A DNA stretch of 64,000 nt from a virus. The position numbers were made by a program, and so were the translations under genes. Positions 3,146-38,217 of this stretch are shown here, in pieces (the stretch's first letter is position 1; every line of letters begins with the position of its first letter). The notes below the pieces were generated by a model. That model saw only the letters and a program-made list of their open reading frames with translations. It had not been told where the DNA came from and ran no database searches. The stretch lies in IMG/VR virus record IMGVR_UViG_3300049427_000004, positions 96,001 to 160,000 of that record; one strand, written 5' to 3'.

Positions 3146-3460
3146 CTATTCAAATTTAAAGCAAACCGTAGCACCTTTTAAATAAACTTCTAATGTTGCG
3201 CCCATGTCTGGATACACTTGCATCAACTCTTGATCATCTTCAAGCGCTTCCAGCTCGTTAACTAGCAATTCAAATTGTTGTTTATTTTCTTTATTCTTGA
3301 TGTAGATGTAAAACGAATCAGCCGACACCTGCCATTCATTAAGAGTGCAGTATGTTGCAAAACCTCCTGCATGAACACCAATTGTCATCTGTTTACTTTG
3401 ATTGTTTTCCAAAGTATTTACGATTTCTTTAACCATTTGTTCATGTGTAATTGTTTGCAT
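3146..3460 (-). CDS. hypothetical protein
   Basis: 104-aa ORF, SD AAGGAGCGG upstream, own promoter at 3505-3532. Confidence 0.7.
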   Translation of the reverse strand: MQTITHEQMVKEIVNTLENNQSKQMTIGVHAGGFATYCTLNEWQVSADSFYIYIKNKENKQQFELLVNELEALEDDQELMQVYPDMGATLEVYLKGATVCFKFE

Positions 3461-3504
3461 AATAACCGCTCCTTATTGGATATGTATTTTCTTTCCTTAC
3501 CTTT

Positions 3505-3532
3505 ATTATACACTTTATACATTTAAATACAA
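3505..3532 (-). promoter_or_regulatory. sigmaA promoter with operator in spacer
   Basis: Minus strand TTGTAT-16-TG-TATAAT arrangement; CTTTA-N6-TAAAT at 3513-3528. Confidence 0.6.
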
Positions 3533-3638
3533 GTGTTATTTTTGATATTTCGCTTTTATTTTAAGGCTCATAAATGTTACATTTCATAACCTGCCACCTA
3601 GAGAAGTTTTACCCTCTCTAGGCTTCTCAGAATCATTT

Positions 3639-4724
3639 TTAAGCTGCTTTCTTTGCGTTTCTATACGGTAACACTAGATAATTATAGTCAATCATTGCAG
3701 GTGTGTATTCACCTGTCATTTTAAACACAATGTATTCATTCTTATTGTTTTTTAATCCATCAAGTAACAATTCAAGGTTGAAGCATATTGACAAGTCTTC
3801 ACCTATTTTTTTTACATCCAATTCACTTGTAAGTGTGTTTTTCGAATCTTTAGAACCAACTTTAATATATAGTTTATCATTTTTAACGTCTATGTTTATT
3901 GTCCCAGTTTTATCAGCAATTTCTTTCATGAGCTGCAATTCCTCAACCAGTTCTTTTTTATTGATTTTAACTTCACTTTTAAAGTGTTGCGGAATGATTT
4001 TCGTTGTATCTGGATACGTCCCCTCAATCAATCGTAAAAGCATAGTAACATTATCAAAAACTATTCTAACATGTCTATTGTGACTATCAACGGTGAAAGT
4101 AAACCCACCTTTGTATTGTTTATCAATGAACGAAGAAATTAGGTTTAGAGACGTTGAAGCGATGACCATATCATTGGTATTCTCATTGCTTTCAATAGTC
4201 GCTAGAGCTAATCTATGGCGGTCACACGCTGTCACAGCCTTACCTTTGAATAGTAAACCTTGCAACACTGGAGTTGATTCCGAAACAGCACAAGCATAAG
4301 TAATTGAAATTACTTCTAACATCTTTTCTTTTGAAATTGTAAACGCTGGTTGAGTGAATTCAGTTGACGGGATGTCTGGGTAGTTGACTGGATCTAGTCC
4401 TATGTATTTAATATTTCGTTTACCTGATTCGATTTTATCAGATGCGATAGTCATATATGTATCGTTTAATTTTTGGATAAGTTTCAATGTTTCTTTGGTG
4501 AGGACAATCGAACCAGATTCAATAACTTCAGCTTCTTTTAATTCAATGATAGTGGGCATTACTTCATGATTAACTGCAATCAATCTAACTGATTCTGTTG
4601 CGATAATTTTGATGCCATTTAACATTTCTAATTTTGATTTACTTGGTGTCACCTTTAAAAGATTTTTGATTGCAGTTTGGATTTCTTTAGTCATGACGTT
4701 AATTTTCATTATTACACTCTCCAT
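3639..4724 (-). CDS. dnaN: DNA polymerase III beta sliding clamp
   Basis: 361 aa; clamp motifs PVLQG, TACDRHRLA, RLIEGTYPD, ICFNLELLLDGL and C-terminal LVLPYR. Confidence 0.9.
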   Translation of the reverse strand: MESVIMKINVMTKEIQTAIKNLLKVTPSKSKLEMLNGIKIIATESVRLIAVNHEVMPTIIELKEAEVIESGSIVLTKETLKLIQKLNDTYMTIASDKIESGKRNIKYIGLDPVNYPDIPSTEFTQPAFTISKEKMLEVISITYACAVSESTPVLQGLLFKGKAVTACDRHRLALATIESNENTNDMVIASTSLNLISSFIDKQYKGGFTFTVDSHNRHVRIVFDNVTMLLRLIEGTYPDTTKIIPQHFKSEVKINKKELVEELQLMKEIADKTGTINIDVKNDKLYIKVGSKDSKNTLTSELDVKKIGEDLSICFNLELLLDGLKNNKNEYIVFKMTGEYTPAMIDYNYLVLPYRNAKKAA

Positions 4725-9182: not shown

Positions 9183-9614
9183 TTATTCATTCTCAATATA
9201 GAATTTACTATCCTTTTGAGTGATCCGATTAAATGAGAATACATTCTGTACAGGTTCATCTATAGCGTTAGCAATTTTATACATGGTTTTGACATCTAGG
9301 TTATCATCTTTAAATATTTGATTGATGCGCTGTTTAGTAACTCCAATCATATTTCCTAACTCCTCCTGAGTTATCCCTTTTGACTTTACAACCTCTTTAG
9401 ATCGATTCTCAAACCCTTCAGCTTTGAATATCGCTATTTGTTTATCAATGTATTTATCAGCTTCATTATCATAGTGTATCTCGTTACAATCGTTGCATTT
9501 TGTTGCAGGTATGTTTGGGATAACTAAAGCTTTATTATCGATGATTTTTTCTAAAGTATCTGTATATGAAATTAGATTTGAAGATCCACAGTATGAGCAG
9601 AATGGAATTTTCAT
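9183..9614 (-). CDS. antitoxin, YgiT/MqsA-type zinc finger plus XRE HTH
   Basis: CSYCGS..IPATKCNDCNEIHY zinc finger; KGITQEELGNMIGVTKQRINQI HTH. Confidence 0.8.
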   Translation of the reverse strand: MKIPFCSYCGSSNLISYTDTLEKIIDNKALVIPNIPATKCNDCNEIHYDNEADKYIDKQIAIFKAEGFENRSKEVVKSKGITQEELGNMIGVTKQRINQIFKDDNLDVKTMYKIANAIDEPVQNVFSFNRITQKDSKFYIENE

Positions 9615-9659
9615 TTGTTAACACTCCTTTAATTTTAGTTTTGCGAGAAGCTATGGACA

Positions 9660-9947
9660 TTATTCCTTGTCCATAGCTGTAATGATTGAAATCCATTTAT
9701 CGGTATGTAGTATTTTGATGGCTAATCTATGATTGTTTGAGCCTCCTTCAATTTTGTATGATGTTATTCCATCTGGATTATCATCGTTTGTTCTTAGGAT
9801 TGTATGAGCGTTAACCAGTATGTCATGAACATCTTCACCTGTCAGGTTACGGTCAATCATTTGGTCTTTAGCGTGTTTGGTACGTGAGTACTTGTTTTCA
9901 GTTGCTAATCGATGTATTAGCGAAAGTATTTCTGACTGTGTAGCCAT
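9660..9947 (-). CDS. DUF4258 (RelE-fold) putative toxin
   Basis: YSRTKHAKDQMIDRNLTGEDV pattern typical of DUF4258; upstream of the zinc-finger-HTH gene. Confidence 0.75.
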   Translation of the reverse strand: MATQSEILSLIHRLATENKYSRTKHAKDQMIDRNLTGEDVHDILVNAHTILRTNDDNPDGITSYKIEGGSNNHRLAIKILHTDKWISIITAMDKE

Positions 9948-10033: not shown

Positions 10034-11011
10034 TTAAGAGCCTATTTTGTAATAGGCTCTGTCTGTCTGTTTATTTTGGTTAGATATAATTGATTGATAC
10101 CACTCCTTGTTAATGTATTGGCTTATTGGTTTGTTGACATATGAAAATGTAAGACTAATTAATATTTGATTATCCTTTTTATATGGTGTCTCGTTTATTA
10201 CTTTAATCCAGAATGAATAATCAGAATCAATGAGTTCGCCTATTATAGTTTCGCTTATCGTGTTGCCATTCTTTAGTTTATTGTAAGCACCCATATGTTT
10301 ATTAACATCTCGTTGCCATTCGTTGTGTGACATGTCAAGATCGTAGTTTGTATTGTAGTATAGGAATGTATAACCTTCACTATTAACGCTTATTTCAGGC
10401 TGATTGGATTCTGAAGCAAATAGTTGTAAGTCTAATTGTAAGGAGTGTTGAGAAGCCTCTGAAGGCTCCTCAGTGACTATGTAAGCTAGATCTAGGTCTG
10501 ATTGTTCACAATAGTTATATGCTTCATTATAGGATAAGAATGAACGGTTATAGGCTATGTATGATTGTTCGGTTTGTACTGATTGTACTGGTTTTTCTTG
10601 AGTTTCTTGTTCATTTTCATTATTTACTTCATTGATTACTTCAACTGTTTGTGCTACTTGAATTTCTTCTACTTTAGTTTCATCAATAATATTGAAATGA
10701 GCTTTTAAACGTTGAATATAGTTCATTACTTTTTCTGCATCTTCATGAGTCTTAAGCATTCTATAAGCTACCTTCAACTGTTGTAGACCGTTTTGCTTAT
10801 TTACTTCTGATTGAACGGATTTAGTAGTGGATTCAAAAGTAATAGTGGATACAATCGTTTCACCTGCTTTGATAGCTGCTTGACGGTTATCGGCATAGAT
10901 TAGGAATTCTTCGATTTTACCGAACATGTCAACATTTAATTCATATGTGTAACCCATTTCAATAAAGTTGTAACCTTTACGTCCTTTTTTGGAAATAGTG
11001 AAGTATCTCAT
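10034..11011 (-). CDS. hypothetical multidomain early protein with internal LQLDLQLFAS motif
   Basis: 325-aa ORF with acidic Q/E-rich linkers; SD GAGG; own promoter near 11049-11078. Confidence 0.7.
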   Translation of the reverse strand: MRYFTISKKGRKGYNFIEMGYTYELNVDMFGKIEEFLIYADNRQAAIKAGETIVSTITFESTTKSVQSEVNKQNGLQQLKVAYRMLKTHEDAEKVMNYIQRLKAHFNIIDETKVEEIQVAQTVEVINEVNNENEQETQEKPVQSVQTEQSYIAYNRSFLSYNEAYNYCEQSDLDLAYIVTEEPSEASQHSLQLDLQLFASESNQPEISVNSEGYTFLYYNTNYDLDMSHNEWQRDVNKHMGAYNKLKNGNTISETIIGELIDSDYSFWIKVINETPYKKDNQILISLTFSYVNKPISQYINKEWYQSIISNQNKQTDRAYYKIGS

Positions 11012-11583
11012 AGTGAAAACCTCTTCTCAATGTTTTATTTTATAATTCATTATAGCATGGATGGATTGAGTAAGTAAAGTGATTAGTTTACTTTAATTGA
11101 ATGAAATATTGATATGGATATGTGTGATTGATATGATGCTATAGTGTTCTATTGTGATAGGATATAAGGCTATTGTATGACCGTGTAAGACGTTGTGAGA
11201 CATTATGAGATAATGAGAATAGATATAGTGTAATGTGATGTATGATTGATTAGAGTTGATTGTGGGTAGTGTGAAGCGTTATAGAGTGTATGTAGAGAGA
11301 TCGTGAAAAGATAGATAATAATATGGATGTGATAAGTTATATTAATAAGATATAGATAGTGATAGATAATAGTTATAAGTTGTGTTGAGCATTGTTAATG
11401 GGACATTATACGTCCCGATTATAGAGTTATATGGATATGATAAGTTATTCTTATTGATATGACATATTGATAGATAAAACTTATCTGTTGTCATGTAGTT
11501 GATGGTTAGATAATTATGTGATATCTATTTGATGTGGTAGTATAGGGTTAATAATACAGTATAGCAGAATGATACAGATTTTT

Positions 11584-11668
11584 GTTAACCTAATATAGAT
11601 TGTTTCAGTTAACATATATAGATGATTGTTAACTAACATTGAATATACAAGGTTAACATATATAGATA
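11584..11668. repeat. iteron-like array: four GTTAAC palindromes, GTTAACATATATAGAT twice
   Basis: GTTAAC at 11584, 11608, 11628 and 11652 (spacing 24/20/24). Confidence 0.75.
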
Positions 11669-12595
11669 TGACTAAATGACCAAATTAGAATTCTAGTCAC
11701 TTAACAATTCGGTGCTATGTTACTATAGCGATTTGGAGCTAAGAAGAAAACTTTTATTTTTTTTACTGGTCAATGCTGTTTCATCTGTCCTCCCTCTGAC
11801 CTCACTGGATCGTGGATATCAGTGGCAGACTATACCCTAATCAGTATGTCATTAATAAAGATAGGGTGATGAAATCGGAGTTTTAATTGATGAATATTAG
11901 GCTCATTTCCTCTATTCCGTACGAATGTATATTCGTTGGGAGTGAAAATGTATAGTAATGACAAGGGATGGACGGTCATGGAGTGAGTACCATGCATAGG
12001 TGGGGGGGATGGTTTACATCCAAAAATTGTAAAATATTGAGCAATGGGCGGCTATCTGTTCATCTTCCACACTCAACTTATAATCTCATTCGATATCCAT
12101 TTCATTTCTATTTTTACCTCCATCCACTCTATTCCTATCCATCTACTCAACTTTTCATCCCCACTCAAATCCCACTCAATTTCACCTCTCTCACACCCTC
12201 CTGCTATCGTATTTGCTATCGATCACCTATCGTTAAAACTCAATGTTTATCTACATTTTCACTTTCACCTTATCTCCTCTAATCATCACATTTTCACCAA
12301 TTCCTACCTACATTCACCCATTATCCACCTATCCAATCACCTCTACTCTCAATTTTCCCTTATTTTATCTACCTTTTCACGATACACTCTACTCTTCAGC
12401 AAATCACCTACCATATACAATATCTCCTAATCGCTCTCAATCCCATATAAACTCTACACTTTCCATCTATTCACAGCTCCCAATTCAAACTCTACCGATA
12501 GCACAATTTTCCCTCATCGATAACATATCCTATATATCACCTTTACAGGGGAGGGGGATACTTTAACATCAAAAAATAAAGCAGCTACCCATATA

Positions 12596-13525
12596 CTAGG
12601 TAACTGCCAATTTTTCATTTATATATTTCTCTTCGTATCTCTCAAACATCCCATCATATGTATAGCTATCCTTTTTCTTTTTTATAATAGCCTCACATTT
12701 AACAATAAACTTAGGAAACAAATAATGATCCTTGCACATTTTATAGATATTATAATCATATTGCTCAATTTCACTAAACATGTTAATTGCCTCTTCTATA
12801 TTCCCCCATGCATTACACTCAACTTTTTCTCTAATTTCTAGTACTGTAAATTCACCTTCAACTGTACTGATAACATCATTATCTCCATATACAGAAGAGT
12901 AATCATTTACCTCTTGTATATATCTGTTCAATTTATCATGATAATAAAACTTACCAGAGTCTATTTTAATTCTGCCATCAGACTCCATCCTCTTTAGCAA
13001 CTTCTCTACTCCCTGTGATTTATATCCCATTTGATTTGCCCACTCAGAAATAGATATCCTATGCTCAGAATTTTTCCATTTTGCTATATATGAGAATATA
13101 AAAAACTCCTTAGCATTAACTGATCTATCAAACATCCAATGCTCTATTACAGTAAATCGTTTAGGAGTTGTTTTCAGTAGATATATCTTCATAGGCTGCA
13201 TAAATTTATTAGTAACCTTTTCATCTAATACTTTCATATGTATAAAGCCTTTATCTTGCAAACCAATCAATGCATTATAAACACTAACAAAATTCTTGCT
13301 GGACACCTTCTGTAATTGTGCAGATATGGATAGCATATGAACATTAGTAAACACAATACTCTTATGTATATCATGATTCAATCTGCTGATACAATATAGA
13401 ACATATAACTCATCAATTTTATTCTTATCCTCTAACCAATCCTCAAAAAATGAATTATCAACTTTTATATTATACTCATATAGATTATACATACACTCCA
13501 AATCCAACTGTCGAATCAAATCCAA
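12596..13525 (-). CDS. tandem winged-helix protein, replication-initiator-like
   Basis: FFIFSYIAKWK..ISISEWANQMGYKSQGVEKLLKRMESDGRIK wHTH; preceded by a palindrome array. Confidence 0.55.
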   Translation of the reverse strand: MDLIRQLDLECMYNLYEYNIKVDNSFFEDWLEDKNKIDELYVLYCISRLNHDIHKSIVFTNVHMLSISAQLQKVSSKNFVSVYNALIGLQDKGFIHMKVLDEKVTNKFMQPMKIYLLKTTPKRFTVIEHWMFDRSVNAKEFFIFSYIAKWKNSEHRISISEWANQMGYKSQGVEKLLKRMESDGRIKIDSGKFYYHDKLNRYIQEVNDYSSVYGDNDVISTVEGEFTVLEIREKVECNAWGNIEEAINMFSEIEQYDYNIYKMCKDHYLFPKFIVKCEAIIKKKKDSYTYDGMFERYEEKYINEKLAVT

Positions 13526-13617: not shown

Positions 13618-13753
13618 GGTAAAAATTTTTACCTGAAATCAGTACTTTTTATTACTTTAGGTAAGATTTTTTACCTAAAATATTTCTTTCTGGTGAATTT
13701 TCTTACCTAAAATATAATCTTTATTATTTGAGGTAAAAATTTTCACCAGAAAT
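13618..13753. repeat. array of four imperfect palindromes GGT(A/G)A..ATTTT..ACC
   Basis: GGTAAAAATTTTTACC 13618-13633; AGGTAAGATTTTTTACCT 13659-13676; TGGTGAATTTTCTTACCT ~13691-13708; AGGTAAAAATTTTCACCA ~13731-13748. Confidence 0.75.
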
Positions 13754-13758
13754 ATATC

Positions 13759-15999
13759 CTACTCATTCTTCAACATGCTCTCCAAAAATGTCTGTCTTCT
13801 CAAATTATCCACCTTACGCATAGCATAATTCAATGTCTCAGCTTGAGTTAAAATGATACAATAGTCAACAGCTCTCGTGATCGCAGTATAGATTAAGTTG
13901 CAGCTTAACTGGAATTTATGAGATCTGTCTGCAATAATCAAAACAGCCTTACTACTACTCCCTTGACTCTTGTGACAGGTTATACTCCAAGCATGGATCA
14001 ACTGGTTCATCTCATCTAATGACAATTTAACTGTATCATCATCAAATTCAATGATAGTTCCTCTAGGGTCAACCATTATCTCATCTTCATTTCCTTCTTC
14101 ATCTTGAACATACTTTATGTATTTTTCACCTTCTAGGACAATGTTCTGTATTGTTCCACTATCTCCATTTACAATCGTGACTGCTTCGCCTTCATCATTT
14201 TCAATTCCATATGTATTTTTTACATTCATAACATAATCATCTTGTCTAAAGGTCATATAGTCACCGTACTGATATTCAACCTTGGCTTCTGTTTTAGGAT
14301 TAACAAGTTCTTGAACGTACTTGTTAATTTCCACCGTACCGATTTCCCCTTTTTTCGTGGGAGTTAATACCATGATATCCATAGGGTCAAATTTATTGAG
14401 ATATTTTTTGTAATAATGTTTGTATCCATCTTGCATATGATTTTGATCAACACAATGAATGATTAGATTTTCGCCAAACTTCTTCACACCTGAGAAATTG
14501 TCGTCAATGAATTTCTGCTTCATTCGCACACGGCTTGCTATATCAAGAATGCCACCTTCACTTTGGCGAAACACAATATCCAACATAGTCGCTGGAATCA
14601 CTTTGCTTTCAATTGCATCGTGCAATATATTTCCGCCCATGACCGCAGCAAGCTGAGCAGAGTCACCGCAAAATAATATCCTTGCTTTTGGATTAGTTAT
14701 TTTAGATAATAGCATCTGCATTATGAAGATATCAGTCATCGACATCTCGTCTACCACAATTACATCAGCGTCAACTTATATCAATTGTCTTTGCTCTTTG
14801 TCTTTTCCATATCCAATAGCTCTATGTATAGTTTGTGCTTGCCTTCCTGTATAACTTGACAATAGTTTGGCAGCTTTACCTGTAGGAGATAGTAAAACAT
14901 AACTCATTCCTAACTCCTCTAATAATTCAACAAGCAATCTTTGCATCTGAGTTTTCCCTGTACCAGCATATCCTACTAATAGTGAGGCAGAATGCTTTTT
15001 AACATTATGAAAAAATTCCTTCTGTTGCTCAGACAAACCATGTTTTAAGGTATCTTTATATTTGACTTCCATGCGATGTATAAATTCATTTGGGTCAAAA
15101 TTTAATTCCATAGAATTATGAAGCATTTGTTTTAGTTTTGTTGCTATGTGTTTTTCAGCTTGATAAGTTTTCAATAAGGCAATCTTATCACCAATAACAA
15201 TAATTCCTTCTGTATTTTTAATTTGTTCGTTTATTAAATTTTCATTGATATCTAAGTTGTCGATAGCTGCTTTAACCATTTTGTCAATTATCATATATGT
15301 ATGACCTTCTTGCTGATTGTTCTCTAGTGTATATTTGATTCCAGATTGAATTCTGAATGGATGATCGAAAACAAACCCCATCTTACGTGCAATGATATCT
15401 GCTTTCTTGAATCCTATTCCACTCACTAGCTCACAAAGGCAGTAAGGATTGTCTTCAATCTTTTGAATAGCTAATTGCACACTTTCAAACTTCTCTGCAA
15501 TTTTCATAACTACATTGTATGTAATTCCATATCGACCAAGTTTAGATAGTAAGTCTCTATGTTCGATATTTTCTAAAACTTTTTTACGTATCTGTTTATA
15601 TGTCTTTTCACCTATACCCTTAACCAATTTAGAATTGAACTTGTCATCCACAATCATTTGGATAATATCCTCGTTTAGATACACTTTAAATAATTCTTCA
15701 ACCTGTTTATCTGTTAAAAGATACCTAAAGAATGATTTTTGATCCTCACCTGAAGATGGCATATCTTGATATATGGAATGACACTCATAACTTGCACCGT
15801 ATTGTGGATGAACCTCGGTTAACTCTACATTGGCAACATACTCCACTCCTAAATCTAAACGCTGCATGACTCCCTTTATTGATGCATTACTGTATTTATT
15901 AAGTTGTATCGCATGGTCTTTGGTGGTACATGAATAAATGCGAAAATCACCTTTATTGAATATCATTTTAATTGGTGTTAATTTAGTTTCAATTATCAT
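13759..15999 (-). pseudogene. recD2: RecD2-like SF1B helicase interrupted by an in-frame TAA at 14778-14776
   Basis: Walker A GYAGTGKT and LSPTGKAA in the 5' part; the frame continues QRQLI*VDADVIVVDEMSM into motif II, then GDSAQL, FRQSEG, HAWSITCHKSQGS and YTAITRA. Confidence 0.85.
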
Positions 16000-16059: not shown

Positions 16060-16857
16060 TTATTTTTGATTTAACTTTCCTAAGTATTCATATTTGAATA
16101 TTATAGCATCTTTAACATCTTTAAATAATGCAATATCTTTTTGTTTTCCATTAATTCTAAAGCGAACAATCCATCGCTGTTCACTTTTACTCCAAATGAC
16201 ATTCTTTTCTCCAGATTGCTTTTCTGCTATTCGTTTTAATTTCGGAGCAATTATATCTTTACCTGTCACACCTTTTTTAAATCTATTAGTTATAATATGT
16301 ATTTCCACACCTGATTCATCTGACCACTGTGTTGCTGTTTTTGTAATGCCCTCAATCTCTATGTATAAATTGTTTCGTCTATTATTTTGTTGAATTTTCA
16401 TCGTTTCCCATCTGCAATTGCTTGGCTCGTAGTTACCGTTCACATCTTTTCGATCAATCGTCAGTTCATCTGTATAACCATTTTTCATCGACCACTCATA
16501 AAAATTTTGAAATCCATTTCTACCTAACCAATCGTCGCAAATCTTAATTCCTCTGCCCCCATAATTATGATAGTTTTCACAGTATTCTTTATAACACCTT
16601 TCTTTCATACCCTTCCATATCTTATACAGCCTTGTATTTTTCCTCCCATGCGTAGATACTATGTCTGCGTGTAAGCAGCCGCAACTTCTAGTGTTTCCGT
16701 TAATTAAACCACTACATCTAACGATTTTCTCATTTCCACAGTCGCAAATGCACATCCACATAATATGTGATTTTTCACTTTCGACGCGCTTAATGGCTGT
16801 TAGTCGACCGAATTTTTGTTTCGTTATATCTTTAGTTTTATTCAATATCATTACCAC
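16060..16857 (-). CDS. free-standing HNH-type homing endonuclease with C-terminal AP2-like domain
   Basis: KFGRLTAIKR..WMCICDCGN..SCGC, YGGRGIKICDDW, LTIDRKDVNGNYEPSNCRW; C-terminal NVIWSKSEQRWIVRFRINGK. Confidence 0.85.
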   Translation of the reverse strand: MVMILNKTKDITKQKFGRLTAIKRVESEKSHIMWMCICDCGNEKIVRCSGLINGNTRSCGCLHADIVSTHGRKNTRLYKIWKGMKERCYKEYCENYHNYGGRGIKICDDWLGRNGFQNFYEWSMKNGYTDELTIDRKDVNGNYEPSNCRWETMKIQQNNRRNNLYIEIEGITKTATQWSDESGVEIHIITNRFKKGVTGKDIIAPKLKRIAEKQSGEKNVIWSKSEQRWIVRFRINGKQKDIALFKDVKDAIIFKYEYLGKLNQK

Positions 16858-24505: not shown

Positions 24506-25795
24506 TTGGAAAGCAATTATGTTAAATTGTGGTTTGCATATGATATTAATAACCAAATAACCTACATATCAAGTATTAATGAATCTAACAAATACAATAC
24601 ATATAATTGTCCTATTTGCTCATCTACCGTCATACCAAAAGCGCTTAATTCATCAAAAGTTGCATCTCATTTCGCCCATGACGATTCGACTCAGTGTAAT
24701 TCAGAGACAATGATTCACTGGTGGTTTAAAAACAAATTTATTGAATGTGGCGATAGAATAATAATCCATGGACAAGATAAAACATACATCTGTTCTGAAG
24801 TAATTGTTGAACAATCAATACATACTTCTCATGGCATTTATCGCCCTGACATTACGATCAAAACAAAATGTAGCGAAATTATATATTTTGAAATGAATTA
24901 TCGAAATAAGAAGAAAACTGAAGATTATATAGATAAATGGTTAGAGTTAAAGAAAACAGTTGTAGAAGTAGACATTAAAGACTTGTTGTTAGGTAATGAA
25001 GCATCTAGCTTTACTCCCCTTTTCTCCAATGGAAAGATAATTAATTCTAAGAAGAATGATACATATTACAATACCATCGGTAAGTATAAAGAAATTGTTC
25101 TGTATGATTTTGTCACAGATGAGCAAAAGAAAAGAATTGAAAAATTGGATTGGTTATGGCGTGAAATAACAAATTATAAACTCGGAACCATTTCAATAGA
25201 TCGTATTTCCCTAATTATCGATTCCATTGATCAGGAAGGCAGAGGCGTTGTAGATGAGGTGCTAAAGTCAGCAAAATGCAGTAAACTTTATAAAGATTAT
25301 AAAAACTATAAAAAACAATTTGAAGAACTCCAACTAGATTTTACTCCAGAAGACCTAACTAATAAAGTATCATTTGTGAATGAAAATCAATGCATTAATC
25401 CTTACGAATTAAAATTAGTTAGTACCAAAAAATACAAATCAGAAAGTTATTATAATGGCAGCAGAAAGCATATGTATAAAACAAGACAATATTTTAGCCA
25501 CTACACTTTTTCAGTGGTACTGAAGTGTAAAGAAAAAATAATTAATCGTATTTCAGTATTAAATAAAGATTATGAGAAACTTGTTAATACAAATTTTCTC
25601 ACTGAATGGACTATTCAAATTACAAAAAACCATAAGATTGGTAACAGATGCGTAGAATGCAATAAGGTATTTAATATGGAGTTTAAAGAGTTGAAGTATT
25701 ATTCAGACAAAAATTTTAAAATTCCAAAACGTTGCCCTGTATGTAAAAGTAAAAGAAAAAACAATCAAGATCGGAGGACTTCTATTATTGAGTAA
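24506..25795 (+). CDS. CoiA-like zinc ribbon + PD-(D/E)xK nuclease-like protein with C-terminal zinc ribbon
   Basis: YNCPICSSTVIPK..HFAH; YRPDITIK..IYFEM; C-terminal CVECNKVF..PKRCPVCK. Confidence 0.65.
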   Translation: MESNYVKLWFAYDINNQITYISSINESNKYNTYNCPICSSTVIPKALNSSKVASHFAHDDSTQCNSETMIHWWFKNKFIECGDRIIIHGQDKTYICSEVIVEQSIHTSHGIYRPDITIKTKCSEIIYFEMNYRNKKKTEDYIDKWLELKKTVVEVDIKDLLLGNEASSFTPLFSNGKIINSKKNDTYYNTIGKYKEIVLYDFVTDEQKKRIEKLDWLWREITNYKLGTISIDRISLIIDSIDQEGRGVVDEVLKSAKCSKLYKDYKNYKKQFEELQLDFTPEDLTNKVSFVNENQCINPYELKLVSTKKYKSESYYNGSRKHMYKTRQYFSHYTFSVVLKCKEKIINRISVLNKDYEKLVNTNFLTEWTIQITKNHKIGNRCVECNKVFNMEFKELKYYSDKNFKIPKRCPVCKSKRKNNQDRRTSIIE

Positions 25796-28568
25796 ACAAA
25801 AATCCAGTTTAAAATACATATTTAAAATCAACTCGTCGCGAATAAGAAGTGCGAATTGGAATCTTAACCTATCCTCTTCTGAAGCATTTAAAAACGAGGA
25901 AATTGTTTCATTAGCTGATAGCACAACTCTTAGATTCATAAGGAATATCAAAGGTCTTAATGATGATGAAATTGAAAATCAAGTTAAAGTAACAAAAAAA
26001 CAAATTAAAATATTAAAATCATATCCTACAACACCTGAACATAGAAAGAATATCAGAAAACAGTACGATTTATTGTTCGATTTGACGTTTGTCAAGGATT
26101 ATATATGCATTGTTATGGACAGCAATAAAGACTTTGACAGGTTGAATAGCAAAAAAGGATTCTATATAAACGGCGTTAAATTTAAACGACTCTTGGCTAC
26201 AACAGGAGGAGCAAAAAATAGCACCGTTGTATACGTAAGTGATTTGATACATAGCGAGTTAAATATACGTCTAGAAAACGGTAGAGATGCAAGCAAACCT
26301 TTTGTTCCAGCTAAGCTTGAGGCCTACAAGTCTCTAGCATGCAGCGCAAGCGTCACAGTACCAAATCCAACAGGAATTTTAGTTGTGAATGACTGCGTAA
26401 CAAATTTCACTTCGGACATAGTCAAGATTGATGACACCTATGGTGAGTATCCTTCAATGACATATGAAAAAGACAGCATAGTAGAGTTAAATGATAGTGA
26501 TGGATATGGTTTGATCCTCCCTTCTCTCAGCAAGCATTGGGCCGAATTTTTAGGAGAAGATTACACCCCAAGTGGTTATTGTTTGAGGGGATCATTTACA
26601 AAGGGTATGGTTTTTAGTTTTGACTTTCTTGATTTTGCGAATAAAATATCTGGAACAACTAAAGTCATAGATGCTTGGGGAAATATGAAGGATTTAATTG
26701 ATGATCAGATTCAATTAATTCTAACAACTTCTATGTTAAAACTGTGGGACAGTTACAACAACATTGAACATTACCTGCGTTGTTGTGATGAAAACGGTTA
26801 TGAATGGAGTGTCACCAAGGTAATACCGAAGCAGCTTGAAAATGAAAGAAATTTAAACTACCAATTCATACAATCTTTAAATCTCAGTGACAATGATATT
26901 GATGAATTAATTGAGCCTACAATTACAGAAATCAAAGATGTTCTAAGTGAAGATTGGAGAAAAAGTCTGCTGTTCTTAAAAGGATCGCATTTACATGATA
27001 AGAGCTTTACACAATCGGATAGTGATTTCTCAAAAGCACTAATGGTAGACAAAGAAATGATAAAAGATCCATTTGTAAGAACAAGAATACATAATATGAC
27101 TAAAAAAAGAATAAACGATGCCAAAACAGGAGTTCTCAGAGTAAAAGGAAATTTTTCTATTGTTTCAGGAGACCCGTATAGCCTCTGTCAGTCGATTTTT
27201 GGTATGGAGGTTACGGGATTACTCAAGGCAGGAGAATTTTATTCGAATTACTGGAATGAAAAGAATATTGATAAGGTGGCATGCTTTAGAGCGCCAATGA
27301 CATGTCACAATAACATACGAATACTTAGATTTAAAAATACTGAAGTTATGAACTATTGGTATCAGTATATGAGCACTGTTACAATTTTTAACTCATGGGA
27401 TACGACAGCTCACGCCTTAAATGGTTTGGATAAAGATGGCGATTCAGTAATGACTACCCCATCCCCTGTCATCCTTAGGGCAATTAGAGAGTTAGAAGCA
27501 ATCTTATGTGTACAAAAAACAGCAAATAAAATCATTGCCACAGAAGATGATTTTATAAAAGCAAACAAGAACAGTTTTGGAGATGCCATAGGTTCTATAA
27601 CCAATCGAATCACATCTATGTTCGACGTTCAAGCAAAGTATGACAGAGCAAGTGAAGAGTACAAGGAATTAGAATACAGAATTATCTGTGGTCAGAATTA
27701 TCAGCAAAACGCAATAGACAAGTCTAAAGGAATCGTAAGTAAAGCGATGCCAAAAGATTGGTATGATTACAAATCAAATATGCCTTCTAATGATGAAGAA
27801 GAAGATATTAATGAGCAAAGGGATTTTAATATAAGCATCTTAGCTGATAAAAAACCGTATTTCTTCTCATACATATATCCACATTTGATGAAGCAGCATA
27901 GACTATACATAGCAAATACAACCAAGAATGCTTACAAACGATTCGATCTAAGTGTTGAAGAATTAATTGCAAAAGAAGGTAAAAATGAAGATGAAGAGAA
28001 TTTTCTAAAGTTTTATCATTATAAAACTCCTCTTTCAATGGCTGATTCAGTAATGAATAATATTTGTCGTAAAATTGAGGGTGAGTTTGATAACGTTAGA
28101 GTCACCCTCAAGAAAGTTGAATTTGATCATACAATACTTATGAGTAACGCTACTTATACTAAGGGTCGGTTTGCAGCTATAAAGGAACTTTATAAGCAAT
28201 ACCTCACTCAGGTTAGGGAATATGTAAAATCATCTAAGTCGATGAAAATTGATAAAGATGAGCGACAAAGTAAACGTGCTGAATTTGTGGAATCCTTTAA
28301 AAAAGAAGCATCAATGCTTTGTAATTGTATAGAGGAGCTAACCAATATTGTAGTTGAAGTTTGCTACAGCAACGGAAGCGATAATTCTAAGCAATTTGCT
28401 TGGGACATATGTGGAGAACAAATGATCAAAAATTTACTTAAGAGGAATAATAATACGATCCACTACCCCGTATTGGATTCACTTGGAGACATCGAATTTG
28501 GTGGAGAAAAATTTAAATTAGTTTCTAATGTATTGGAGGATTGCGATATTGAAAGTAGTTTTAAATGA
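25788..28568 (+). CDS. yonO: single-subunit phage RNA polymerase (SPbeta YonO family, RdRP-like double-psi barrel)
   Basis: 926 aa; catalytic NGLDKDGD (27429-27443), CFRAPMT, SDGYG, QNAIDKSKG motifs; position before HU as in SPbeta. Confidence 0.9.
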   Translation: MSKQKSSLKYIFKINSSRIRSANWNLNLSSSEAFKNEEIVSLADSTTLRFIRNIKGLNDDEIENQVKVTKKQIKILKSYPTTPEHRKNIRKQYDLLFDLTFVKDYICIVMDSNKDFDRLNSKKGFYINGVKFKRLLATTGGAKNSTVVYVSDLIHSELNIRLENGRDASKPFVPAKLEAYKSLACSASVTVPNPTGILVVNDCVTNFTSDIVKIDDTYGEYPSMTYEKDSIVELNDSDGYGLILPSLSKHWAEFLGEDYTPSGYCLRGSFTKGMVFSFDFLDFANKISGTTKVIDAWGNMKDLIDDQIQLILTTSMLKLWDSYNNIEHYLRCCDENGYEWSVTKVIPKQLENERNLNYQFIQSLNLSDNDIDELIEPTITEIKDVLSEDWRKSLLFLKGSHLHDKSFTQSDSDFSKALMVDKEMIKDPFVRTRIHNMTKKRINDAKTGVLRVKGNFSIVSGDPYSLCQSIFGMEVTGLLKAGEFYSNYWNEKNIDKVACFRAPMTCHNNIRILRFKNTEVMNYWYQYMSTVTIFNSWDTTAHALNGLDKDGDSVMTTPSPVILRAIRELEAILCVQKTANKIIATEDDFIKANKNSFGDAIGSITNRITSMFDVQAKYDRASEEYKELEYRIICGQNYQQNAIDKSKGIVSKAMPKDWYDYKSNMPSNDEEEDINEQRDFNISILADKKPYFFSYIYPHLMKQHRLYIANTTKNAYKRFDLSVEELIAKEGKNEDEENFLKFYHYKTPLSMADSVMNNICRKIEGEFDNVRVTLKKVEFDHTILMSNATYTKGRFAAIKELYKQYLTQVREYVKSSKSMKIDKDERQSKRAEFVESFKKEASMLCNCIEELTNIVVEVCYSNGSDNSKQFAWDICGEQMIKNLLKRNNNTIHYPVLDSLGDIEFGGEKFKLVSNVLEDCDIESSFK

Positions 28569-36651: not shown

Positions 36652-38217
36652 ATTACTACAACTCCAAAAAAACGTGGAAGACCACCAAAAGCACAAACTA
36701 CAGAGAAAGTGCAATCATCTGCCGAACCTTTTGACATGACCTATGAGTTATGTGCGCTAACAGATTTTATAACTCAGTATGGATCTGGTGCATCGCTTAC
36801 AGATATTAAATTGACTGATCTTTATAATTATCTTAGGAATCCATATAAGTACATAAAGCAGCTACGTCTTGCATCCAAATATTTAACCAATAAACACGGG
36901 ATAGTGAAAGATGTTTTGAAGGCTTTTAAATCTCTTCCTACGCTTAACTATCACCTCGCATGGTCTTCATTAGAAAATCCTAAACAAATAAAAAAATACG
37001 AACAAAAAATTCACGATTTTCTAGAAGAAATTAATGTGAAAAAATTTGTGCGTGATGGGTTATACGAAAGCGGAGAAGTTGGAACCGTAGTCAGTTGTCT
37101 AAGAAAAGGAAAGTATATTCAATTCTTAGATTTGGATGATATAAGAATAAATAAACAAGAAAATGGTAAATGGATTGTTGAATATGATTTATCTGTCATT
37201 AAAGGCAACTTACCCACAAATGCAAATACCTACGATCTTGCAGCGGTGATTGAAGTTCTTCCTGATGAGGTAACAACGAGTGCGTATCTACAGTTTGTTA
37301 AAAAAGGTGAATCATTTAGATATGTGCGATTAAAGAATTGTGATGTTACAGCCATTGATAACAACCGAAATACTCCATACGGCTTACCTTTAAGTTTGGG
37401 TGCATGGACTTCATTAATTCAGAAAGAAATAATCTCAAGAGTTGAACGCAGTCAAGCTGATCAACTAACTAAAAAGTTGCTAATACTTTATGCAGGGAAT
37501 ATCGGTGGAAAAGATAATGGAAAACCAGCACCAAAACCTCTGATTGAAGGATATTTTAAGGAAGTAAGCAATCTTATTGTCAAGAAAGAACAAAACCAAT
37601 CTAAAAATCCTTCAGATGCAAGTGGTACTGGTGTTATCGCACTTCCTGATTTCTTTAAGTTAGAAGGACTAGATGTAAAAGTCGAGATGTTTACTGACGA
37701 CCTATACAAAAAAATTAACGCAGATATTTTCATGAATCTTGGTGTTTCAGAGGCACTTATTTACGGCTCTGGAGCAAACTACTCGTCTGCTAGCATGAAC
37801 AGTGAAAAATTCTTTAGGTACATATATACGTCAATTGAGGAATTTGAAAGAGTAATAAACAGTTACGTTAAATCTATGCTTCCATTCGGATTGAGTTGCA
37901 AGTTCTATTTTGATAGAACAACACTTCTCGATAAAGACAAGTATATCGACAAGTGTAAGGATTTTTACATGCAAACAGGAATCTTTTCACCATGGGCTGA
38001 ATCTTTACTTGGAATTCCTTTTCAATATGCTCTTGGGTTGGCTCAATACGAGCAAGAAGTATTAAAGATATCTGAGTTAATCAAACCTCCACAAAATGCT
38101 TTTACTCAAAGCGGAAGTGAATCAGGCGGAAGACCAGAAGACACTTCAGGTAAAAGTGAAAACACAAACAAAAGCAAGAGTTCTGGTGGTAATAAATCAC
38201 CTAGCCCATCTGACTGA
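36652..38217 (+). CDS. portal protein (YonE-like)
   Basis: Follows terL; ~520 aa; YGLPLSLGAW; frame open back to ATT 36652 behind perfect AAGGAGGT. Confidence 0.75.
   Translation: MTTTPKKRGRPPKAQTTEKVQSSAEPFDMTYELCALTDFITQYGSGASLTDIKLTDLYNYLRNPYKYIKQLRLASKYLTNKHGIVKDVLKAFKSLPTLNYHLAWSSLENPKQIKKYEQKIHDFLEEINVKKFVRDGLYESGEVGTVVSCLRKGKYIQFLDLDDIRINKQENGKWIVEYDLSVIKGNLPTNANTYDLAAVIEVLPDEVTTSAYLQFVKKGESFRYVRLKNCDVTAIDNNRNTPYGLPLSLGAWTSLIQKEIISRVERSQADQLTKKLLILYAGNIGGKDNGKPAPKPLIEGYFKEVSNLIVKKEQNQSKNPSDASGTGVIALPDFFKLEGLDVKVEMFTDDLYKKINADIFMNLGVSEALIYGSGANYSSASMNSEKFFRYIYTSIEEFERVINSYVKSMLPFGLSCKFYFDRTTLLDKDKYIDKCKDFYMQTGIFSPWAESLLGIPFQYALGLAQYEQEVLKISELIKPPQNAFTQSGSESGGRPEDTSGKSENTNKSKSSGGNKSPSPSD

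Follow-up and report, generated by a model that had tools for sequence, protein, structure and literature searches.

Mirrored base-excluding arms mark a probable SPbeta-type packaging and genome-end element in a freshwater-metagenome phage

Background

SPbeta has been a model temperate phage for 50 years, and in phages of its group the genome is opened, and packaging starts, between the genes yonR and yonP (10.1101/2021.11.22.469490; PMC8270828; Fink & Zahler 1982, as cited there). The opening points have been mapped on virion DNA within this yonR-yonP element, a precise block of ~250 bp follows the opening point, and packaging proceeds toward yonP/yonO (10.1101/2021.11.22.469490). The packaging (pac) site of SPbeta has not been dissected and shows no likeness to the pac site of SPP1 (PMC8270828), and both the packaging machinery and the pac signal are still undefined (PMC8270828; 10.1101/2021.11.22.469490). 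Here we analyse a window of 64,000 nucleotides, bases 96001-160000 of a 178,866-bp viral contig from IMG/VR (G+C ~33%) that derives from a freshwater-metagenome phage. The window contains a 1.5-kb gene-free locus in which two arms, each nearly devoid of one base, flank an unskewed core in mirror image. We conclude that this locus is probably a packaging and genome-end element of the SPbeta type, possibly doubling as, or abutting, a plasmid-type origin of replication.

The location of the site has already been published for the SPbeta group; what appears to be new is the pair of mirrored, base-excluding arms at the block that is cut. The phrase "GC skew" has 0 occurrences in the study of Kohm et al. 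(10.1101/2021.11.22.469490), and the literature that we searched on pac sites, terminal repeats and skew contained no account of base-excluding arms at this site.

Composition and layout of the locus

On the + strand, the GC skew in 200-nt windows ranges from +0.76 to +0.86 at 11100-11400 and from -0.78 to -0.87 at 12100-12500; the DNA that separates these arms is roughly unskewed. The left arm (11060-11580) contains 25 C and 127 G (4.8% C, 24% G), the right arm (12050-12545) 17 G and 168 C (3.4% G, 34% C), and the core 14% C and 21% G. In the remainder of the window, the skew of 300-nt windows averages 0.04 (standard deviation 0.18) and never exceeds 0.65 in absolute value; across the whole contig (178,866 bp), just 3 other short stretches pass an absolute value of 0.7 in 200-nt windows, none of them paired or equally long. 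The initial annotation, made from the sequence of the window, had described the mirrored skew pair, with a C-poor left arm, a G-poor right arm and a structured, hairpin-bearing core, and this description is borne out. Its counts are exact, with two C in 11281-11400 (at 11302 and 11390) and a single G in 12061-12202 (at 12092); the four hairpins that it listed are present in the core, as is the G7 run at 12002-12008, and a long exact inverted repeat is, as it had stated, absent, the best one being 28 nt at 82%.

The features of the locus are given below in window coordinates; L002 and L003 are two related contigs that are described further on.

11060-11580: variable arm, G-rich and C-poor on the + strand, on the side distal to the late genes
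11581-12059: unskewed core, counterpart of the 252-bp block of the SPbeta group and of the 404-bp terminal repeat of phage c-st
11584-11667: four GTTAAC repeats with ~22-bp phasing at the edge between variable arm and core, with a 16-nt exact repeat, GTTAACATATATAGAT, spaced 44 nt
11803-11824: hairpin CACTG/CAGTG
11921-11936: hairpin ACGAAT-GTAT-ATTCGT, its stem compensated in relatives
11977-11994: hairpin CATGG/CCATG
12002-12020, + strand: box 2, GGGGGGGATGGTTTACATC, counterpart of the SPbeta-group box GGGGGTATATTTACATC, aligned by nhmmer and kept in L002 and L003
12007-12021: hairpin GGATG/CATCC
12041-12062, + strand: conserved GCAATGGGCGGCTATCTG leading into the G-free tract, kept in the window, L002 and L003
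12060-12545: conserved arm, C-rich and G-poor on the + strand, with the motif series TTCCACAC, TTT(T)YACC and TATCG/CGATA
12203-12232, + strand: three direct (G)CTATCG words with 11-12-nt spacing, kept in L002 and L003 and aligning with SPbeta ATCGTAATCGCTATCGTAAAA
12548-12570, + strand: box 1, GGGGAGGGGGATACTTTAACATC, a second copy of the box in direct orientation that closes the conserved arm on its outer side, kept in L002 and L003
12580-12608, - strand: hairpin flanked by T-runs on either side, the intrinsic terminator of the rep-like gene, kept in L002 and L003

The last G before the G-free tract is at 12058, and the main G-containing island of the G-poor arm consists of the three (G)CTATCG words at 12203-12232, a candidate binding site for a packaging protein (CTATCG: 7 observed against 0.6 expected). 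The GTTAAC repeats are candidate lineage-specific recognition repeats for the terminase or for Rep, the putative replication initiator encoded next to the element. A scan for tandem repeats returned one trivial 10-nt array only, and the only A/T tract that would fit as an unwinding-element candidate lies at ~11745-11766. The two copies of the box, which have the form of a G-run followed by T(T)TAACATC, bracket the conserved arm at a distance of 546 nt in the window, L002 and L003. The SPbeta-group phages possess the inner copy only; the outer one may be a second cut or recognition site.

Homology to the SPbeta-group yonR-yonP element

Near yonO, phage phi3T carries a ~900-bp gene-free element that consists of a C-free arm (skew to +1.0), an A+T-rich core, the box GGGGGTATATTAACATC, a G-poor arm and a terminator. 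Across the six SPbeta-group phages that we compared, the parts are as follows.

G-arm: 184-315 nt with 23% gaps; 2-9% C, skew +0.41 to +0.85; 58% pairwise identity
Core: 250-252 bp; skew near 0; 82% pairwise identity
C-arm: 275 nt; 5-7% G, skew about -0.63; 86% pairwise identity

In this group (L010, L011 and L014-L016), the G-arm is a replacement hot spot, with cores and C-arms 82-99% identical next to G-arms that can barely be aligned.

An nhmmer profile of the SPbeta core and C-arm was compared with both strands of the whole 179-kb contig and of six other loci. Just two matches had E<0.01, one to 11976-12311 on the + strand of the window (E 0.0044) and the other to the equivalent place in L002 (E 0.006). 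The alignments are collinear through G5..TTTACATC, GTAAAAT, TTCCACAC, TTTTCAC and ATCGTAnnnGCTATCG, and the landmarks ATCGTA..GCTATCG also belong to the series shared with the SPbeta group. The reciprocal profile, built from the window, L002 and L003, matched five SPbeta loci only at the box and C-arm, on the + strand, with E-values of 0.008-0.13; in phi3T, the match begins exactly at the box. At the sequence level, the profile matches are weak but location-specific in both directions, and the locus, judged by these alignments, is a diverged homolog of the SPbeta-group yonR-yonP element. In the SPbeta group, the box lies 53 nt before the junction of the core with the C-arm, at which CCCATAGC is followed by ACTTCCATTTCCACAC; the window has CTATCTG followed by TTCATCTTCCACAC. 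The segment 12041-12062 (more narrowly, ~12058-12062) is the predicted counterpart, within ~10 nt, of the end of the SPbeta core at the C-arm, here denoted End B.

The surroundings of the locus are also in part of the SPbeta kind. The window encodes a YonO-type RNA polymerase at 25788-28568, which is 45% identical to that of Clostridium phage c-st and 26% identical to that of phi3T, and, downstream on the + strand, the portal protein (36709-38217), with a probable large terminase (TerL) upstream of the portal on the same strand. To the left of the element, the genes point leftward and include one for a helix-turn-helix (HTH) protein, which fits the early genes on the yonR side.

Genome ends and a model of packaging

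Deposited records of the SPbeta group coincide with the edges of the arms. The linear BUCT082 record begins exactly at the junction of the G-arm and the core (between ATGT and CTTCGATT), and the boundary of the BUCT083 record lies 252 bp further, exactly at the junction of the core and the C-arm (between CCCATAGC and ACTTCCATTTCCACAC). The spacing of 252 bp matches the published block of ~250 bp. Read most simply, two terminal cuts delimit the core, which is then probably a short terminal repeat.

Phage c-st (AP008983.1) has annotated terminal direct repeats of 404 bp. In the yonO orientation, a G5 run lies ~30 nt from the end of the repeat that faces the late genes, and the repeat is followed by a tract with G>C that contains the words CACGATAA, GTATCG and CGATAC; it is preceded by a tract the complement of which is G-poor (2-4 G per 100 nt), with the words TTTCAC, TTTACATC and TTATCT. 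In the c-st segment that was compared (L020, AP008983.1 182600-185683), the annotation of the right repeat, 185280-185683, is off by one base relative to the left copy, the true start being 185279. Two further records were considered as evidence on genome ends and proved uninformative: the record of Enterocloster phage CB457P1 ends in low-complexity A/T and poly-T sequence, and a Thomasclavelia YonO-phage record is prophage-derived.

These relationships suggest the following model. The terminase complex would recognise the core together with the box and, in the conserved arm, the TATCG/TTTYACC words, would cut at or near both arm/core junctions, and would package rightwards, toward the genes for the YonO polymerase, the terminase and the portal. 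Each virion end would then carry the core as a short terminal repeat (with a length of 252 bp in SPbeta and 404 bp in c-st, and of perhaps ~480 bp here), and just inside this repeat the 3'-ending strand of each end would be G-rich and nearly C-free. The initial annotation had offered a packaging terminus, cut in the core so as to leave G/T-rich 3' strands at both ends, as one of two functions for the locus, and this proposal draws support from the SPbeta-element homology, the shared architecture and the record ends, as opposed to direct mapping in this phage.

Conservation in close relatives

The product of the rep-like gene that adjoins the element has only 2 close homologs among 5.8 billion proteins (and 37 representatives among 1.8 billion). 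The genes for both of these, on the 169-kb contig L002 and the 3.8-kb contig L003, precede a gene-free gap that is skewed in the same mirrored way, and a 2.2-kb metagenomic contig, L006, in which Rep is 42% identical, carries a miniature version of the element. Next to the more distant rep homologs of L007-L009, the element was not found. The initial annotation had suggested looking for the same skew pair in related phages, where it is indeed kept (L002, L003), reduced (L006) or, in the SPbeta group, present as the yonR-yonP element.

The identity between the window and L003 is 76% in the conserved arm and 56% in the variable arm; with L002, the values are 48% and 39%, respectively. In a three-way alignment, the indels between relatives in the G-poor arm measure 10, 11, 1, 12 and 21 nt, a set that includes lengths not divisible by 3 and therefore rules out coding; the open reading frames at the locus are artefacts, as had been claimed at the outset. 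In the conserved arm, only 3 of the 100 substitutions that separate the window from L003 involve the excluded base, and in the variable arm the rare-base positions are kept in 4 of 25 cases compared with 282 of 496 (57%) for the other bases. Given that the arms diverge, with such indels, yet retain the skew, it is composition and not sequence that is constrained. In the conserved arms, the rare bases fall inside conserved motifs in 11 of 14 cases here and in 8 of 17 in SPbeta, a mixed result.

In the core, the hairpin at 11921-11936 has the stem ACTAAT/ATTAGT in L003 and ACTATT/AATAGT in L002, and the SPbeta-group cores have AATGAAT-GGTT-ATTCATT. L003 retains GTTAAC/GTCAAC copies, and L006 has, at 1830-2010, ~12 copies of (T)AGTTCACTA in both orientations, an iteron-like array located at the edge of the core, in the same relative place as the GTTAAC repeats. 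At 3400-3700, ~700 nt past the element, L003 contains a second C>G tract with a skew of about -0.56 to -0.59.

Wider searches returned no additional members. A DNA similarity search of a phage collection with the locus gave no match, probably because of low complexity and divergence; tblastn with Rep against phages and plasmids gave none either, and Rep or the left-flank protein as the query against viral, genome and metagenome contigs retrieved no related loci. Two matches to the box pattern in viral contigs were due to chance, both in high-GC contigs that lack the skew. The one public sequencing run with the locus, a DNA run that may be the source sample, yielded a single assembled contig that spans the element and is uninformative about genome ends; no RNA run with the locus was listed.

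Packaging site, plasmid origin, RNA or recombination site

Several observations weigh against the packaging reading. The E-values of the homology (0.004-0.13) are weak and based on short motifs in low-complexity DNA, and the SPbeta and window profiles have no significant match in c-st (E >= 0.9), the likeness to which is architectural only. The window position of the left boundary of the core (End A) could not be fixed by homology; by analogy, this end would lie at ~11580, where the C-poor arm stops. The core is ~230 bp longer than that of SPbeta and contains 22-bp-phased repeats typical of iterons, and ~12 kb with the rep, RecD2-like helicase, recombinase and tubulin genes separate the element from the yonP/yonO cluster. 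BUCT083 was deposited as a circular genome, the start of which is possibly in part conventional, and Kohm et al. interpret their data as pac/headful packaging, not as a terminal repeat (10.1101/2021.11.22.469490). For the window phage, the cut positions, the terminal repeat and the role of the arms are predicted from sequence and by analogy with SPbeta and c-st. Finally, rep directly adjoins the element in the window and in the three related loci L002, L003 and L006, which would fit an origin of replication as well. The features that bear on this alternative are the following.

12596-13525, - strand: Rep-like gene, 309 amino acids, tandem winged-helix fold, adjoining the element in this lineage only
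13618-13747: four palindromes GGT(G/A)AAAA-TTTT(T/C)ACC upstream of rep, presumed Rep operators

The locus could be, instead of or besides a packaging site, an iteron-type plasmid origin (oriV) for the adjacent initiator, a possibility that we regard as unlikely. Under this scenario, Rep monomers would bind to GGTGAAA half-sites, to the 22-bp GTTAAC repeats or to both, open the core at its A/T tract and load a helicase, perhaps the RecD2-like one. The Rep-like protein weakly matches phrog_270 ("replication initiation") with an E-value of 1.2e-5 and has no match in Pfam; its AlphaFold model (predicted local distance difference test score, pLDDT, 85) resembles, in Foldseek comparisons, RepE54, pi and a complex of Rep with the DNA unwinding element (DUE) (probability ~1, E 2e-3 to 7e-3, template modelling score 0.32-0.45), so that the modelled fold would suit an initiator of this class. 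Operator-type palindromes occur upstream of rep also in L002, L003 and L006, that is, in four lineages; in L006, they comprise GGTNAAAAAATNACC operators and TTGGATAGGGTATCCAA palindromes. The arm adjoining rep has 5-6 co-oriented GGTGAAA half-sites that match the operator, at irregular spacings of 7-82 nt, and TTTTCAC is found 10 times in six arms against 0.8 expected. The 22-bp-phased repeats at 11584-11667, the 12 AGTTCACTA repeats of L006 and the nearby tubulin partition genes, recombinase and toxin-antitoxin-like pair are all compatible with a plasmid-type origin. However, the SPbeta-group phages, in which no Rep homolog was found, have the element nonetheless, and TTTTCAC is present in their C-arm as well; the GTTAAC repeats of the core, although phased by ~22 bp, are unlike the Rep operator half-site; L007 keeps the recombinase-helicase-rep synteny without the element after rep; and the two 500-nt base-exclusion arms are left unexplained. 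DnaA boxes are marginal at most, and CTA occurs on the C-rich strands 199 times against 193 +/- 13 expected from composition; the second function proposed in the initial annotation, a bidirectional origin primed at CTA on these strands, is thus not supported as stated. The enlarged core could still house an iteron-type origin for the Rep-like gene as well.

A non-coding RNA is a very unlikely alternative, whether as a G-free RNA of ~560 nt that would start near box 2 and extend rightwards as far as the bidirectional terminator or as C-free RNAs directed inward, with a role as a regulator, a primer or a Rho-loading insulator. Box 2 does include a -35-like hexamer, TTTACA, with a weak -10 at a distance of 16-18 nt after it in each of the three loci (window, L002 and L003), T-runs flank the terminator at 12580-12608, and the G-free transcript would be devoid of AUG, GUG or UUG starts and of a Shine-Dalgarno sequence, and would be rut-like. 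But the -10 is poor and its sequence is not conserved, the promoter-like sites number 13 compared with 12.3 in shuffled sequences, Rfam 15 has no match at E <= 1 in 10500-13000 on either strand, and the consensus fold of the core is weak (-5.9, -14.7; three sequences, partly misaligned), with one covarying hairpin only. A tRNA search found none. The promoter used by YonO in SPbeta maps upstream of yonK (PMC5467207), not in the element. Still less probable, to the point that we give it hardly any weight, is a site for dimer resolution or translocase guidance, in which G-rich polar motifs of the type of KOPS (FtsK-orienting polar sequences) or SRS (SpoIIIE recognition sequences) would be oriented toward a recombinase site within the core. 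The G-rich strands have a polarity that fits this geometry, a tyrosine recombinase is encoded 5 kb away, and the boxes bear what we take to be a faint likeness to XerD half-sites. Yet neither word is enriched beyond composition (SpoIIIE SRS, 10 observed and 9.4 expected; KOPS-like word, 5 and 7.6), and the palindromic partner of the box is not kept in L002 or L003.

Why one base is excluded

When folded with DNA parameters, the arms yield -0.01 to -0.05 kcal/mol/nt, the core -0.094 and random 200-mers of the contig -0.071 +/- 0.027. The arms are among the least self-structured DNA of the genome; this weak folding is a consequence of their composition, not independent evidence. The conserved arm carries motifs and so probably binds a protein. 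As the variable arm keeps only its composition whereas the conserved arm keeps motifs as well, a role of the composition seems to be common to both ends. Selection on base composition alone, with the sequence drifting, is unusual and points to a strand-specific step in the processing of the ends.

Among the explanations of the arms, we tentatively prefer, as one possibility, selected base exclusion in the service of such strand-specific processing, which would leave sub-terminal single strands without G-C pairing. At resected or unreplicated ends, these strands could form G-C pairs neither internally nor with one another; annealing would then be confined to the terminal repeats, and the genome would be circularised or concatenated. 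A role of the arms in terminase wrapping is supported by ~11-nt lags in some of the arms. A more doubtful proposal, as Rep half-sites sit inside the packaging arm, is that the arms are a selected device, perhaps poor primase templates, and that the element has in addition been co-opted as a plasmid-type origin in this lineage. If this is true, replication initiation and packaging compete for one site.

Alternatively, the arms could be a mutational by-product of cytosine deamination on 3'-ending strands that are recurrently single-stranded, with no selection involved, which we hold to be improbable. At each virion end, it is precisely on the strand predicted to end 3' that C is the excluded base, and the rare bases of the variable arm are not conserved, both as expected under deamination. 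Nevertheless, G is raised to 24-34% (against 17.6%) and the G+C content is kept or raised (28-38% against 33%), while on the G-rich strand of the conserved arm T is not enriched (27%) and A is not depleted; with G approximately doubled and T not raised, simple C-to-T decay does not fit the conserved arm. The arms also differ in makeup, one being G+T-rich and the other G+A-rich, their edges are abrupt, not graded, and the core, which would be the most exposed part, is unskewed.

Known words were also sought in the arms. The Chi sequence of Bacillus subtilis has 0 occurrences there. DnaA boxes with <=1 mismatch number 2 in the right arm, where 0.3 are expected, and 0 in the left arm; YTATC words are ~2-fold enriched but make poor DnaA boxes, YTATCNAY differing from the DnaA box at 3 positions.

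Neighbouring genes

The RecD2-like helicase is split in the window into two genes on the - strand, 13759-14757 and 14776-15999 (332 and 407 amino acids, 18 nt apart), and is a single gene in L002 (746 amino acids) and L007 (748 amino acids); the split could represent a nonsense or frameshift lesion, recoding or a sequencing error. An HNH endonuclease gene (16060-16857, - strand) lies between the tyrosine recombinase and the helicase, is absent from this place in L002 and L007, and probably represents a mobile insertion. On the side of the element that faces the early genes, 9183-9947 (- strand) encodes a DUF4258 protein (95 amino acids) followed by an HTH_3/MqsA-like protein (143 amino acids), which look like a toxin-antitoxin pair roughly at the place of SPbeta yonR. 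The cumulative GC skew of the contig reaches its minimum at the tubR/tubZ divergence (genome position 115,085; window ~19085), ~7 kb from the element, and is due mostly to the change in gene orientation.

Comparison with known systems

The origins that depend on RepE (mini-F), pi (R6K) or TrfA-type initiators resemble the locus in the tandem winged-helix initiator, the palindromic operators and the co-oriented half-sites. In contrast to these origins, the half-sites of the window are irregular, the phased repeats of the core do not match the operator, a clear DnaA box with an unwinding element is missing, and the element type exists in phages that lack the initiator. That the element touches a plasmid-type initiator gene prompts one to ask how packaging is coordinated with plasmid replication.

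Among packaging sites, the SPP1 pac consists of pacL, pacC and pacR, the P1 pac has hexamer arrays on either side of the cut, and T7 has a terminal repeat with sub-terminal arrays of short repeats. The locus shares with these a central cleavage region or terminal repeat between recognition or repeat regions, and differs from them in having no sequence similarity to any. To our knowledge, none of the three has hundreds of bases that exclude one nucleotide per strand in mirror image.

Phage c-st has the nearest relative of the window YonO (45%), both phages have tubulin-type partition, and in c-st a short terminal repeat lies between a G>C tract and a G-poor tract with words in common with the window. 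The skew of c-st is milder and shorter, and its ends are defined experimentally, whereas those of the window phage are predicted from its sequence.

The closest counterpart is the SPbeta-group site. Both belong to a supergroup of YonO-encoding phages, and in both a C-poor arm, an unskewed core and a G-poor arm follow in the same order toward yonO and the late genes, with a box of a G-run and TTTACATC near the late-gene side of the core and collinear motifs in the conserved arm. The similarity is at the level of motifs only; the window arms are longer and more extreme (~500 nt compared with 180-315 nt), the core is ~480 bp instead of 252 bp and has the extra 22-bp repeats, the conserved arm is closed by a second copy of the box, and a 12-kb plasmid-like module that includes the Rep-like gene lies between the element and the yonO cluster. 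The arm layout that is common to SPbeta, the window phage and, more weakly, c-st provides a testable sequence definition of the packaging site and a simple rule for finding the genome ends of uncultured SPbeta-like phages and phage-plasmids from sequence.

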